Notes: generated by a model not told the origin, from the sequence alone. A stretch of DNA of 64,000 nucleotides from Candidatus Methylomirabilota bacterium (GCA_036265915.1 DATAOC010000040.1:10571-74570); one strand, 5' to 3'. Shown: positions 36,016 to 42,636, counted from the first letter of the stretch. Numbers and translations: made by a program.

Positions 36016-36723
36016 CTATTTCTCGCCGAGGTAGCTCTTGCGGACCACGTCCGACTTCAGCAGCTCGGCGGCGGCGTCATGGAGCACGAGGCGGCCGGTC
36101 TGCAGCACGTAGCCGCGGTGGGCGACGCGCAGTGCCATGCGCGCGTTCTGCTCGACGAGCAGGATCGTCGTGCCCTGCCGGTTGATGTCCTGGATGATGC
36201 GGAAGATCGTCTCCACCAGGATCGGCGACAGCCCCATCGACGGCTCGTCGAGCAGGAGCAGCGCGGGGCGGGCCATGAGCGCACGGCTGATCGCCAGCAT
36301 CTGCTGCTCGCCGCCCGACAGCGTGCCGCCCTTCTGGGCCAGCCGCTCCCGCAGGCGCGGAAACAGCCCGAGCACGCGGTCGAGATCGCCGGCGATGCCG
36401 TCGCGATCGGGCCGCGCGAACGCGCCGAGCTCCAGGTTCTCGAGCACGGACAGCCGCGGAAAGATGCGCCGCCCCTCGGGCGACTGCGCGATGCCGAGGC
36501 GGACGATGCGATCGGTCGCCAGCGTGTCGACGCGCTGGCCGTTGAAGCTGACGGTGCCGCGCCGCGGCCGCGCGACGCCCAGGATGGTGCGCAGCGTGGT
36601 CGTCTTGCCGGCGCCGTTGGCGCCGATGAGCGTGACGATCTCCCCCGCGTCGACGGTGAGCGACACGCCGCGCAGCGCGCGGATGTTGCCGTAGTAGGTG
36701 TGGACGTCGCCGAGCGCCAGCAT
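36016..36723 (-). CDS. livF: HAAT-family ABC ATP-binding protein (LivF-like), second copy
   Basis: 235 aa from ATG 36723. GANGAGKTT and LSGGEQQ. The rest of ORF 36016..38436 is out-of-frame junk. Confidence 0.9.
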   Translation of the reverse strand: MLALGDVHTYYGNIRALRGVSLTVDAGEIVTLIGANGAGKTTTLRTILGVARPRRGTVSFNGQRVDTLATDRIVRLGIAQSPEGRRIFPRLSVLENLELGAFARPDRDGIAGDLDRVLGLFPRLRERLAQKGGTLSGGEQQMLAISRALMARPALLLLDEPSMGLSPILVETIFRIIQDINRQGTTILLVEQNARMALRVAHRGYVLQTGRLVLHDAAAELLKSDVVRKSYLGEK

Positions 36724-36728
36724 CAGGG

Positions 36729-38702
36729 CTATCGCGGCGCCGCCGGCGCCGGGGCCTCGAGGGCGGCGCCGGTGCCGAGGTATGCCTCGATCACGCGCGG
36801 GTGGCGCTGGATCTCCGCCGGCGTGCCCTCGGCGATGCGGGTGCCGTAATCGAGCACGGTGATGCGGTCGGAGATGCCCATGACCACTTCCATGTCGTGC
36901 TCGATGAGCAGGATCGAGAGCGCCAGCTCGCGCCGCAGCAGGCCGATGAGGTCGGTCAGCGTCTCCGTCTCGCGCGGATTCATGCCGGCCGTCGGCTCGT
37001 CGAGCAGCAGCAGGCGCGGCTCGGTCGCGAGCGCGCGGGCGATCTCGAGCCGCCGCTGATCGCCGTACGGCAGGTTGCGCGCGAGGTCGTCCGCCTTGCC
37101 GGCGAGGCCGACGAAGACAAGGAGCTCGCGCGCCCGCTCGCGCGCGCGGGCTTCCTCGACCCGCACGCTCGGCGGCCGCAGCACCGCGCCGGCAACGGTG
37201 GCCGACAGGCGGCAGTGCTCGCCGACCAGGACGTTGTCGAGCACCGTCATTTGCGGGAACAGACGGATGGACTGAAAGGTCCGCGCGATGCCGCGCGCCA
37301 CCACCGCATTCGGCCGCAGCCCGACCAGGCTCGCGCCGGCGAACGTGATCCGACCCTCGTCGGGTCGCACGAGCCCGGTCACCACGTTGAAGAACGTCGT
37401 CTTGCCGGCGCCGTTGGGGCCGATCAGCCCGACGATCGCCGCCGGCGGGACGACGAGATCGACCGCGTTGAGCGCGAGCACGCCGCCGAAGTGCTTCGTG
37501 AGGCCGGCGACCTCGAGCAGCGACGTCGCCGCCGTTGGCGCCCGGCCATCGCGTAGCCAGGCCGGGATCGCCTCGACGCGAGGCGGCGGCGCCGGCGCGG
37601 CCGGAGCCGGCTCCTCCGGCCCCTCGTCGGTGGCCACGGGCCGCATGCGCCGCCCGGCGAGGCCCTGTGGGCGCAGCAGCATGACGAGGACGAGGCCGAG
37701 CCCGAAGAAGAACCAGCGCCAGAGCGTGAGATCCGCCGTGGCGAGGGCGGGAACGCCGAGCGTGCGTCCGGCGGCGCGCACGAAGAACGTGGTCTGGGTC
37801 AGCACCACGCGGTCGAAGACGGTGATCAGCATCGCGCCGAGGACAACGCCGCCGAGGCTGCCGGCGCCGCCGAGCACGACCATGCACAGCAGCATGATCG
37901 ACACCTGGAACTCGAACGCACCCGGCGTGATCGCCTGTAGCTTCGCCGCGTAGATCGAGCCCGCGAAGCCGGAGAACGAGGCGCCGAGCGCGAAGGCCAG
38001 CAGCTTGGTCGAGACCGGGTTGACGCCGGTGCAGTCCGCGGCCGTCTCGTCCTCGCGGATGGCCATCCACGCGCGACCCAGGCGCGAGTCGCGCAGGCGG
38101 CTCATCGCCCACAGCGACAGCGCGCCGACGATGAGGATGAGGAAGTACCACGGCACGGGATCGGTCTCGAACGGCACGCCGGGCAGGTACGGACGGCCCA
38201 CGGGGTTGACGCCGTTCTCGCCACCCGTGAGATTCAGCCGCTCGATCGGGCGCCAGCCACCGATGTCGATGGTGACGTCTCCGAGATTGCGGATGGCCAC
38301 CGGGATGATCTCGCCGAAGCCGAGCGTGATGATGGCCAGGTAATCGCCGCGCACGCGCAGGGTCGGGGCGCCGATCACGACGCCGAGCAGCGCCGAGACC
38401 GCGGCCGCCACCCAGATGCAGAGCCAGAAGCTCCACGCGTGGCCGTAGAGCGGCGAGCCCAGCACCGGCGAGTTGAGCAGTCCCATCGCGTAGGCGCCGA
38501 TGGCGAAGAACGCCGCGTACCCGAGGTCCAGCAGCCCCGCGTAGCCGACCACGATGTTCAGACCGAGCGCGAGCAGCACGTAGATCATGCCGTCGGAGAC
38601 GGCGTGCACGGTGTGCAGCCCGAGGGCGGCGTCCAGGAACGGATAGGCCGTCAGCGCGATGACGAGCAGGAGCGGGCCACGCCAGTCACGCCTTGTCGGC
38701 AC
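36729..38702 (-). CDS. Fused HAAT-family permease-ATPase (LivM-LivG), second copy
   Basis: TM domain + GPNGAGKTT...LPYGDQRRLEIARAL. The start at 38702 is uncertain (17-nt overlap with livH). Confidence 0.85.
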   Translation of the reverse strand: MPTRRDWRGPLLLVIALTAYPFLDAALGLHTVHAVSDGMIYVLLALGLNIVVGYAGLLDLGYAAFFAIGAYAMGLLNSPVLGSPLYGHAWSFWLCIWVAAAVSALLGVVIGAPTLRVRGDYLAIITLGFGEIIPVAIRNLGDVTIDIGGWRPIERLNLTGGENGVNPVGRPYLPGVPFETDPVPWYFLILIVGALSLWAMSRLRDSRLGRAWMAIREDETAADCTGVNPVSTKLLAFALGASFSGFAGSIYAAKLQAITPGAFEFQVSIMLLCMVVLGGAGSLGGVVLGAMLITVFDRVVLTQTTFFVRAAGRTLGVPALATADLTLWRWFFFGLGLVLVMLLRPQGLAGRRMRPVATDEGPEEPAPAAPAPPPRVEAIPAWLRDGRAPTAATSLLEVAGLTKHFGGVLALNAVDLVVPPAAIVGLIGPNGAGKTTFFNVVTGLVRPDEGRITFAGASLVGLRPNAVVARGIARTFQSIRLFPQMTVLDNVLVGEHCRLSATVAGAVLRPPSVRVEEARARERARELLVFVGLAGKADDLARNLPYGDQRRLEIARALATEPRLLLLDEPTAGMNPRETETLTDLIGLLRRELALSILLIEHDMEVVMGISDRITVLDYGTRIAEGTPAEIQRHPRVIEAYLGTGAALEAPAPAAPR

Positions 38703-41118: not shown

Positions 41119-41218
41119 GATGGACCTCCGCGCTCGGAGTTATGATCCGGAACGCCTATGGGCCGCGCGTACGAGACTAGACTATGACTGCTCGCTCCTT
41201 GTCAACCGAGGTGAGGCG

Positions 41219-42046
41219 ATGGCACGACCGCACGTGATCTACCAGGCGAAGCCGGGCTCGGCGCTCGAGGTCGACCGCCGCTTCTATGGGCAGCTGGCTC
41301 CCGAGCAAGGCAAGCGCAAGCTCGTGGAGCAATTCGTCATCCCGCGCCGTTCGGGGCGGGCGTGGCCGGTGCGCGCCGGCCAGATCTTCCGCATCGTGGC
41401 CCTCGAGGGGCCCCAGGTGGCGGATCTGAACGTCTGGAGCCTCGCCAACCCGCGCGAGCGGTTCTGGGCGTCGCGCTCGCGCCAGCTCCATCAGGCTCAC
41501 GTCTCGACGTTCGACCGGCTGTGGTCCTGCCTGCCGTACCTGCGGCCGATGCTGACCATCGTCGCCGACACCGTGAGGTATCCCCGTGACGAGGACGGCG
41601 GCGGCTGTCACGATCTCCTCGGCACGCGGTGCGATCCGTACGTGCACAAGCTGCTCAACGGCGAGGAGCTCGACGTGTGCTGCCACAGCAATCTCGTGCG
41701 CGCCGTCCTGCCGTATCACCTCACCGAGCTCGACGTGCACGACGTGCTGAACGTCTTCCAGGTGACGGGGCTCACGCCCGAGGGACGCTACTTCACCAAG
41801 CCCAGCCCGGCGAAGCAGGGGGACTTCATCGAGTTCTTCGCGGAGCTCGACGTGCTCGTCGCGCTGTCGAACTGCCCGCACGGCGACATGTCGCGGCCGG
41901 TCTGGGGCCCCGACGCCGGCGACGGCGCCGACATCTGTCGCCCGCTCGGCATCGAGGTCTGGCAGCCGGTGCCCGAGGCGCTCGCCGGCTGGCGCTCACC
42001 ATCGCCCTCCGATTACCAGGGCGCCCACGGGCTGCACGCGCGATGA
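41219..42046 (+). CDS. DUF1989 protein (urea-carboxylase-associated protein 1-like)
   Basis: SD GAGGTGAGG. ...RAGQIFRIVALEGPQVADLNVWS...ERF...PMLTIVADTV...CHDLLGTRCD.... Paralogous to the next gene. Family call from memory. Confidence 0.6.
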   Translation: MARPHVIYQAKPGSALEVDRRFYGQLAPEQGKRKLVEQFVIPRRSGRAWPVRAGQIFRIVALEGPQVADLNVWSLANPRERFWASRSRQLHQAHVSTFDRLWSCLPYLRPMLTIVADTVRYPRDEDGGGCHDLLGTRCDPYVHKLLNGEELDVCCHSNLVRAVLPYHLTELDVHDVLNVFQVTGLTPEGRYFTKPSPAKQGDFIEFFAELDVLVALSNCPHGDMSRPVWGPDAGDGADICRPLGIEVWQPVPEALAGWRSPSPSDYQGAHGLHAR

Positions 42047-42636
42047 GCCGCCAGACGATCCCGGCCCGGAAAGGCACGGCGGCGCGCGTGCGCGCCGGAC
42101 AGCACGTTCGCATCATCAATACCCACGGCACCCAGGTCGTCGACGCGTGGGCGTTCAACGCGCAGGACCCGAGCGAGTGGATGGCCATGGAGGCCAGCCG
42201 CGCGTGGTTCCTGAGGCTCGCGGCCGCCGTCGGCGACTCCTTCGTCACCAATCGCCGGCGGCCGATCCTCACGCTGGTCGAGGACACCTCACGCTGCGCG
42301 CACGACACGCTGATGGCGCCCTGCGACGCCGACCGCTACGGCCTCCTCGGCGTGAAGGGATACCACGACAACTGCCGCGACAACCTGCACGCCGCCCTCG
42401 GCGAGCTCGGCGTGAAGGTTCCGGCCACGCCGCCGTCGCTGAACGTCTTCATGAACATCCCGTGGACGCCGGAAGGCCGACTGAGCTGGGGCGAGCCGCT
42501 CTCGCCGCCGGGCAGCTACGCGCTCTTCCGCGCGGAGATGGAGCTCATCGTGGCGTTCTCGGCGTGTCCGCAAGATATCTTGCCGATCAACGGACGCACG
42601 GGCACCACGACCGAGGCGCACTTCACCATCGAGTAG
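42043..42636 (+). CDS. DUF1989 protein (urea-carboxylase-associated protein 2-like)
   Basis: ATGA overlap with the preceding gene. ...[23 protein letters not shown]...[10 protein letters not shown]...HDTLMAPCD.... Confidence 0.6.

Follow-up and report, generated by a model that had tools for sequence, protein, structure and literature searches.

Two orphan DUF1989 subfamilies paired with an amino-acid-type HAAT importer in Rokubacteria: a candidate carboxylase-independent system for guanidino or ureido acids

What might a tandem pair of DUF1989 proteins do beside an ABC importer in a locus that has no carboxylase? The question is raised by positions 36016–42636 of a 64,000-nucleotide (nt) stretch of DNA, hereinafter the window, from a Candidatus Methylomirabilota bacterium (GCA_036265915.1; DATAOC010000040.1:10571–74570). 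Here, the minus strand carries the genes for a HAAT-family ATP-binding cassette (ABC) importer, namely a substrate-binding protein (SBP), LivH, a LivM-LivG fusion and LivF, and two DUF1989 genes, whose products we call A and B, are read divergently from the plus strand (Table 1). A preliminary description of this locus had proposed for the pair a substrate other than urea, namely a small compound of the amide or guanidine type that this transporter delivers, a proposal that fits both the roughly 45 conserved loci and the guanidino/ureido operons of B-type genes described below. What is new is that, in an uncultured soil phylum, a HAAT importer is combined with a pair of DUF1989 proteins from two orphan subfamilies, and this comes with a testable hypothesis: the six genes may serve the import and the carboxylase-independent, hydrolytic deimination or deamidation of a carboxylic acid with a guanidino or ureido group.

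The reason to consider the six genes together is their joint conservation. Scanning one genome per species, we recovered 493 genomes with a relative of A (A-type, hereinafter) and compared the best 80 loci. Among these best 80 of 493, about 45 Rokubacteria-type loci contain the intact six-gene cassette with flanks that differ on both sides, at identities of 83–93% for the SBP and 79–89% for LivF, and the LivM-LivG fusion (647–670 residues) is also found in the relatives. That six genes and the control region they share have been kept together, while the flanks were repeatedly reshuffled, indicates that they constitute a functional unit in Rokubacteria (Methylomirabilota). In one variant, L058, the transporter has diverged further (SBP 69% identical) and the B-like gene is set apart from the rest. 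The same comparison bears on the alternative that there is no functional coupling, i.e., that the transporter imports amino acids in general and simply neighbours the DUF1989 genes by synteny within one phylum: all intact cassettes are found on Rokubacteria-type contigs of ~69–70% GC, and shared ancestry could explain the adjacency. Against this stand the many rearrangements of both flanks around an unchanged core, the unusual conservation of the SBP (mean identity of 88% across orthologues) and the operonic linkage of B-type genes in other phyla to amino acid importers of another ABC family; hence, we consider mere synteny very improbable.

The exact A protein is present on six soil-metagenome contigs, and its closest genomic relatives (88% identical) come from Methylomirabilota/Rokubacteria metagenome-assembled genomes (MAGs). 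Megabase-sized Rokubacteria contigs with the cassette include CAVZOE010000006.1, CAVVJF010000009.1 and CAVYTA010000005.1. An apparent spread of the cassette across phyla was rejected: the bins in question, assigned to Nitrosocosmicus, Verrucomicrobiia, Binatia, Dormiibacterota and Acidoferrum, are all Rokubacteria-like with 68–70% GC and probably reflect binning errors. For instance, DASRWT010000127.1 (L006/L047, binned as Candidatus Nitrosocosmicus), with a GC content of 69% and a cassette 75–89% identical, is almost certainly a contig misbinned in a low-GC archaeal MAG.

Profile searches support the earlier assignment of both proteins to DUF1989: they cover the PF09347 profile end to end, with 179 bits for A and 165.2 bits for B against a gathering score of 27. 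They are also paralogous, as had been recognized (32% identical over 186 residues, E=4e-18), with the three motifs named at that time common to both. The narrower assignment as a UAAP1/UAAP2 pair did not survive comparison with the respective equivalog models, the cut-offs of which are missed widely by both A (63.6 bits for TIGR03424, UAAP2, cut-off 284.7; 47.6 bits for TIGR03425, UAAP1, cut-off 205.95) and B (99.1 and 66.6 bits, respectively); as both score best on the same UAAP2 model, they are not one UAAP1 and one UAAP2. Instead, sequence searches of the PDB place A with 3DI4 (E=1.3e-69) and B with 3ORU/3SIY (E=1.9e-55), with B also recovering the trimethylamine N-oxide (TMAO) demethylase 9Q59 (E=1.3e-17). 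A is 49% identical to a Ruegeria pomeroyi protein and has in common with 3DI4 two insertions and a ~45-residue C-terminal extension, all of which are missing from B. We take 3DI4 to come from Ruegeria pomeroyi, where its locus tag is probably SPO0365, and 3ORU/3SIY to come from Silicibacter sp. TM1040. The family is large, with 1698 clusters at 50% identity matching protein A (E≤1e-3), and the 3DI4 and 3ORU subfamilies are without a published function despite crystal structures that are years old. SPO0365 appears in the literature only in a candidate-gene table, the codes 3DI4, 3ORU and 3SIY only in passing mentions, and a guanidino-acid deiminase is not mentioned in the literature found on DUF1989.

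The preliminary description further held that DUF1989 proteins normally accompany urea carboxylase. This is true of the TIGR03424 and TIGR03425 subfamilies; for the A-type and B-type it fails, no biotin carboxylase having been recognized in the ~170 loci of these two types that were examined. The absence of a carboxylase from the window is thus normal for these subfamilies and not an anomaly. The absence itself is borne out by the 59 genes called in the window (~71% GC) from codon-position GC: Pfam matches for 36 of these, and precomputed ones for five more from an identical metagenome contig, include no biotin or urea carboxylase, allophanate hydrolase or urease, and the genes outside this annotation all code for fewer than 290 residues, which is too small for these enzymes. 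The sole open reading frame (ORF) of carboxylase size (54375–57914, 1179 residues) was rejected as a candidate, as it codes for an adenylate cyclase-AAA-TPR protein (double zinc ribbon, adenylate/guanylate cyclase, AAA_16 and TPR domains). A 483-residue ORF with good coding statistics (29516–30967) has no Pfam match. Likewise rejected were the ORFs of at least ~1000 residues in related loci, which code for regulator, M20, GSDH, sortilin-like or unassigned proteins.

These results allow us to assess whether A and B are an orphaned CgdAB, with the carboxylase and the allophanate hydrolase encoded elsewhere in the genome and the transporter importing guanidine or urea. Like the cassette, CgdAB consists of PF09347 proteins encoded by two adjacent paralogous genes beside an ABC importer, and the tandem, translationally coupled arrangement of A and B resembles that of cgdAB. 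Both proteins also show weak matches to TIGR03424 and TIGR03425, and some of their relatives have been named 'urea carboxylase-associated family protein' by NCBI. However, these scores lie 3 to 4.5 times under the equivalog cut-offs, with A and B preferring the same UAAP2 model; no carboxylase occurs in the 64 kb or in the annotated ±10 kb flanks of the ~45 cassette loci; and the SBP has amino-acid-type motifs and is not UrtA-like. Moreover, a search of the whole window with Rfam at gathering thresholds gave no match and hence no guanidine riboswitch, control by which is common, though not universal, for CgdAB genes. Published guanidine operons, on the other hand, keep the importer and deaminase genes directly adjoining those for the carboxylase and the allophanate hydrolase (PMC12186494). 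The cassette thus differs from the CgdAB systems in having no guanidine/urea carboxylase, allophanate hydrolase or riboswitch and in its HAAT importer with an amino-acid-type SBP. It also differs in that A and B both have the full metal and acid motif and that A-type and B-type genes occur singly as well; CgdAB, by contrast, has been listed in one paper with enzymes whose partner is an inactive cognate (PMC11271267). We accordingly judge an orphaned CgdAB to be highly improbable.

The predicted active sites of A and B can be compared with that of the Paracoccus TMAO demethylase (TDM), for which a 2026 cryo-electron microscopy study described a Cys3-Zn site (C285, C301 and C365) coordinating the substrate oxygen and a pocket with D220, F327 and D367, of which D220 contacts the substrate (PMC13619132). 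The three cysteines align with C138, C155 and C219 of A and with C94, C111 and C175 of B, giving each protein a Cys3-Zn site by sequence. All six belong to the sets of residues that are invariant in 82 A-type sequences (D69, H131-D132, C138, C155, C219) and in 46 B-type sequences (D34, H87-D88, C94, H108, C111, C175), respectively. The equivalent of D220 is likewise kept in both proteins and invariant across their orthologues, whereas F327 and D367 are replaced, by Q and H, respectively, in A and by M and Q in B. Given that the cysteines and D220 are matched and that F327 and D367 are replaced, A and B both look like competent metalloenzymes with a pocket unlike that of TDM.

Shared features of this kind raise the possibility of a TDM-like lyase or demethylase, in which A and/or B would release formaldehyde by cleaving N-methylated amino acids or amine N-oxides. 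A and B do have in common with Tdm (NF053776; 9Q59, 9Q5L, 9Q5A) the DUF1989 core fold, the Cys3-Zn site and an equivalent of D220; B reaches 96.5 bits with the Tdm model (E=1e-17 against 9Q59), and a gene of FMN/FAD amine-dehydrogenase type lies near the cassette variants L047 and L058. Yet the matches to NF053776 (cut-off 1100 bits; A, 22 bits) are confined to the DUF1989 core, and the replaced F327 and D367 set both pockets apart. Tdm, furthermore, has a pair built into a single chain, with one degenerate and one canonical DUF1989 domain, whereas A and B are stand-alone proteins of 275 and 197 residues, as against 793 residues in the solved chain. Neither A nor B has a GcvT/THF domain detectable with Pfam, and none is encoded nearby that could capture formaldehyde. 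The genomic partners of A-type and B-type genes are hydrolases, including guanidino/ureido hydrolases beside the B-type, and amino acid importers, rather than methylamine genes or one-carbon enzymes. We also know of no HAAT binding protein with amino acid clamps that carries TMAO. On balance, TDM-like chemistry appears improbable for this pair.

The contexts in which B-type genes occur outside the cassette offer a lead to the substrate. A metagenome scan yielded 45 taxonomically diverse B-type loci with a length of 4 kb or more, in most of which the B-type gene is the only DUF1989 gene. Ten of these 45 have an ABC importer of the polar amino acid type (PAAT, Lys/Arg/Orn-like) in the same operon; an agmatinase-family ureohydrolase is encoded directly downstream in six (TIGR01230, 185 bits; cut-off 174), a hydantoinase/carbamoylase-family amidase directly upstream in four to five (TIGR01879, 380 bits; cut-off 204) and a creatininase is present in three. 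The closest non-cassette relative of B that we examined (57.5% identical) lies between genes for a creatininase (TIGR04448, 378 bits; cut-off 235) and a hydrolase of the DDAH/arginine-deiminase superfamily, these three genes being preceded by those for a NitT/TauT-type ABC transporter. A creatininase-DUF1989-DDAH operon is no general rule, however, its recurrence being limited to the nearest relatives, at 3 of the 43 loci with 5 kb or more. Additionally, the B-type gene of Mameliella and Rhizobium ends an operon that codes for a PotD-like ABC transporter, an amidase and a PuuE-like deacetylase. By analogy with these partners, the B-type contexts point to guanidino or ureido acids as substrates.

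The A-type too is found on its own: in 29 Dehalococcoidia loci (70–73% identical) it is the sole DUF1989 gene within ±10 kb, with no HAAT transporter. A recurrent arrangement there has an amidase gene directly before the A-type gene and genes for a TRZ/ATZ amidohydrolase and a gamma-glutamyltranspeptidase close by. Ruegeria pomeroyi (L090, 8745–10846) and Leisingera (L091, 8729–10858) have a single gene of the 3DI4 type that is always preceded by one for a pyridoxal phosphate (PLP)-dependent decarboxylase of the ornithine/diaminopimelate/arginine fold, the two forming a conserved pair. The identification of this decarboxylase (SPO0364) as an arginine decarboxylase was rejected, as it is only LysA-like and scores 176 bits against a cut-off of 298. 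Judging from these gene contexts, A-type and B-type proteins each function without the other elsewhere, and the 3DI4 and 3ORU proteins themselves have single genes; it is in Rokubacteria alone that both subfamilies come as a pair and are combined with a HAAT importer. Tandem overlapping pairs of another kind, comprising a third DUF1989 subfamily and the B-type, were seen in two loci (L124, 2753–3956; L154, 4778–6081). Pairs of DUF1989 paralogues appear to have arisen more than once.

The importer provides a second line of evidence on the substrate. It had been described as Urt-like, a view that we had to abandon in light of the NCBIfam models: the SBP scores only 24.9 bits with UrtA (cut-off 492.75), the remaining components also miss the Urt cut-offs (UrtB, 140.6 against 250.3; UrtD, 203.7 against 304.1; UrtE, 216 against 285.8 bits; TIGR03407–03411), and each component scores higher on the Liv than on the Urt models. 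The Liv scores are themselves below cut-off (LivH, 239 against 379; LivG, 292 against 362; LivM, 219 against 366; LivF, 271 against 441; LivJ-like, 99 against 477 bits). At the level of the HAAT family the assignment is nevertheless clear, with a Peripla_BP_6 SBP, two BPD_transp_2 permeases and two ATPases, one of them with BCA_ABC_TP_C, all above the Pfam gathering scores. The cassette importer thus has the same four component types and domains as the LivJHMGF importers, including the SBP motifs NSG, TPAxT and GPDG, and differs from E. coli Liv in its LivM-LivG fusion and in scores that are all below the equivalog cut-offs. The best PDB match of the SBP is Atu2422 (3IP5; E=5e-20), which has these motifs in common with LivJ and with the SBP of the cassette, where NSG (113–115), TPANT (133–137) and GPDG (276–279) are invariant in 46 orthologues. 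In Atu2422 and LivJ, these motifs presumably hold the α-carboxylate and ammonium of the ligand. Equally invariant in the 46 is a 16-residue insertion (142–157) that is missing from Atu2422 and that, along with a similarity of only about E=1e-20, sets the protein apart from solved SBPs.

The window contains a first HAAT locus (19669–26663) with the same order of SBP, LivH, LivM-LivG fusion and LivF, which also has an extra SBP gene overlapping one for a carbon-nitrogen hydrolase of the nitrilase superfamily. The permeases and ATPases of the two loci are 33–54% identical; a BLASTP comparison of the cassette SBP with both SBPs of the first locus gave no similarity at E≤1e-3.

In another possible explanation, the importer would take up proline, hydroxyproline or a derivative, from which a racemase-like enzyme and a D-amino-acid dehydrogenase would generate a cyclic imino acid that is deaminated or opened by A and B. 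A gene of the Pro_racemase family (33731–34738) and one for a D-amino-acid dehydrogenase (34749–35999; NF001933, 390 bits, cut-off 383) converge on livF with a gap of 16 nt, recur next to livF in ~17 of 29 Rokubacteria loci and sit on the opposite side of the cassette in L038. Further, the closest structural relative of the SBP, Atu2422, was deposited as an amino acid-binding protein, the ligands of which we take to be proline, alanine and γ-aminobutyric acid (GABA). Being convergent, this pair is not part of the cassette operon; it is absent from ~40% of the cassette loci, and solo A-type and B-type genes have no proline-pathway genes beside them. We hold a proline-type pathway to be an improbable explanation of the cassette. 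A completed hydroxyproline pathway was rejected, as the gene that follows the DAO gene in several loci codes for a luciferase-like monooxygenase and not for a DapA-type deaminase. The Pro_racemase family gene itself is ambiguous between a racemase, a 4-hydroxyproline epimerase and a 3-hydroxyproline dehydratase.

Combining the cassette with the B-type contexts, we propose that the HAAT importer delivers a small zwitterionic nitrogen compound, in keeping with the amino acid backbone-clamping motifs of its SBP, and that this would be a guanidino- or ureido-carboxylic acid, such as guanidinoacetate, creatine, another guanidino acid or an N-carbamoyl amino acid. In the cytoplasm, A and B, as putative Cys3-zinc enzymes, would hydrolytically cleave C-N bonds to release ammonia. 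One of them would convert the guanidino group to a ureido group and NH3, in the manner of CgdAB acting on carboxyguanidine, and the other would convert the ureido compound to an amine, CO2 and NH3; alternatively, A and B might act as one hetero-oligomer. The parallel with CgdAB extends to a small nitrogen-rich substrate with a carboxylate, from which ammonia would be released by hydrolysis in both cases. In the canonical guanidine pathway, carboxylation comes first and CgdAB then deiminates the carboxylated guanidine (PMC12186494). A biotin carboxylase would be unnecessary for A and B because the imported substrate would already bear the carboxylate that the guanidine carboxylase must add before CgdAB can act. 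This proposal for the substrate class, chemistry and order of steps is our preferred one, which we put forward tentatively as having somewhat less than an even chance of being correct. The more specific version, in which A and B make up an undescribed guanidino-acid route that uses neither ATP nor nickel, with a DUF1989 deiminase that would act before, or form a complex with, a DUF1989 ureido-acid amidohydrolase (e.g., guanidinoacetate or creatine to glycine or sarcosine, CO2 and two NH3), is a possibility but on present evidence an unlikely one. The remaining probability falls to substrates outside this proposal and the alternatives considered above.

The relationship of A and B to each other can be read in two ways. 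A complex is favoured by the ATGA overlap of the stop of A with the start of B, their constant adjacency and the precedent of CgdAB. Sequential enzymes are favoured by the occurrence of either type on its own, by the fact that both proteins have intact sites and by the DinB insertions, i.e., a 175-residue DinB/DinB_2 gene that lies between the A and B genes in two loci (L005, 10862–11389; L038), and probably in three others (L027, L030, L039), and that undoes the coupling of A and B translation found in the window. The window's own lineage has a DinB_2/MDMPI_N gene as well, ~5 kb downstream.

Several observations weigh against the proposed deimination or deamidation of a guanidino or ureido acid. 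Around two thirds of the 45 B-type loci have no guanidino/ureido partner at all and their contexts are heterogeneous, and the A-type contexts, with a PLP-dependent decarboxylase in roseobacters and a mixed set of genes in Dehalococcoidia, lend little support to a guanidino substrate. B scores equally on the TDM and UAAP2 models (96.5 and 99.1 bits), which makes non-hydrolytic chemistry possible, and the hydrolytic chemistry that we predict for A and B is derived from guilt by association. The recurrence of the racemase-like and dehydrogenase genes next to livF hints at another substrate. Finally, the finding of no carboxylase or allophanate hydrolase around the ~45 cassette loci applies to their annotated ±10 kb flanks, with the whole genomes outside the search.

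Turning to the locus itself, each of the six genes was confirmed at the place given in the preliminary description (Table 1), as were the ATGA overlap and a divergent gap of exactly 100 nt between the SBP and A genes. One correction is needed: with the LivH start at 39624, the gap between livH and the SBP gene is 228 nt long and filled with hairpin repeats.

Table 1. Features of the DUF1989-HAAT cassette; positions are counted on the 64-kb window.
Feature	Position	Strand	Description
LivF-type ABC ATPase	36016–36723	−	235 aa; ABC_tran domain
LivM permease-LivG ATPase fusion	36729–38702	−	657 aa; BPD_transp_2 36–306, ABC_tran 411–572, BCA_ABC_TP_C 623–646
LivH-type permease	38686–39624	−	312 aa; BPD_transp_2; 17-nt overlap with livMG start
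Hairpin repeats	39663–39840	no strand	three 52-nt GC-rich copies in the SBP-livH gap
Periplasmic SBP	39853–41118	−	421 aa; Sec signal peptide (mature SBP, 26–421); Peripla_BP_6 E=2.8e-37
Divergent control region	41119–41218	no strand	conserved motif pair
DUF1989 enzyme A	41219–42046	+	275 aa; PF09347 E=7.7e-53; 3DI4/SPO0365 subfamily
DUF1989 enzyme B	42043–42636	+	197 aa; PF09347 E=1.4e-48; 3ORU subfamily

The control region between the SBP and A genes contains a conserved motif pair, which in the window reads AGACTATG (41179–41186) and, after 12 nt, TTGTCAAC (41199–41206). A fuller version, GTATGAGACTATG followed after 12 nt by TTGTCAAC (41169–41206), resembles a promoter or operator; the conserved motif occupies the same position in loci L005–L048 and keeps its distance to the SBP start in most Rokubacteria cassettes. 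Comparison of the loci gives a consensus of TAYVASACTAK and then WTGTCAA with a spacing of 12–13 nt, present in 38 of 48 distinct intergenic sequences. The distance of the pair from the SBP start is constant at ~53 nt, whereas that from the A start ranges from 3 to 126 nt. As its reverse complement contains TTGACA, the motif probably provides the transporter promoter with its −35 box. A strict scan of 35900–42800 for sigma-70 promoters and terminators returned none. The window copy of the motif has a 5-nt AGACT duplication, and a second, unrelated type of intergenic sequence occurs in loci L049–L060 and L069.

The hairpin repeats between the SBP and LivH genes, which came from a repeat search, have perfect 14-nt stems, and the 52-nt unit is absent elsewhere in the window. 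The corresponding gap in relatives measures only 51–60 nt. These repeats may stabilize the mRNA or act as a partial terminator.

Further afield, genes for the B and A subunits of a hydantoinase/oxoprolinase lie at the window edge (60899–63984). HyuA/HyuB genes and a cluster of the xanthine-dehydrogenase family are found a few genes from the cassette in four other loci (L013, L021, L052 and L058), and in L058 they directly follow the A-type gene.

The wider interest of these observations lies in how little has been learned of a widespread family. Only two activities are known for DUF1989, carboxyguanidine deiminase and TMAO demethylase, and CgdAB is the only characterized hydrolytic enzyme among its members. 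The cassette and the operon contexts together provide a concrete and cheaply testable hypothesis for the 3DI4 and 3ORU subfamilies, and they correct the label 'urea carboxylase-associated family protein', a misleading one here in that it suggests metabolism by way of a urea or guanidine carboxylase. If true, the guanidino-acid route would be the first function for these large orphan subfamilies and a third way of degrading guanidino compounds, besides the arginase-family ureohydrolases and the carboxylase-CgdAB pathway. It would also bear on how the abundant, uncultured Rokubacteria of soils acquire organic nitrogen.

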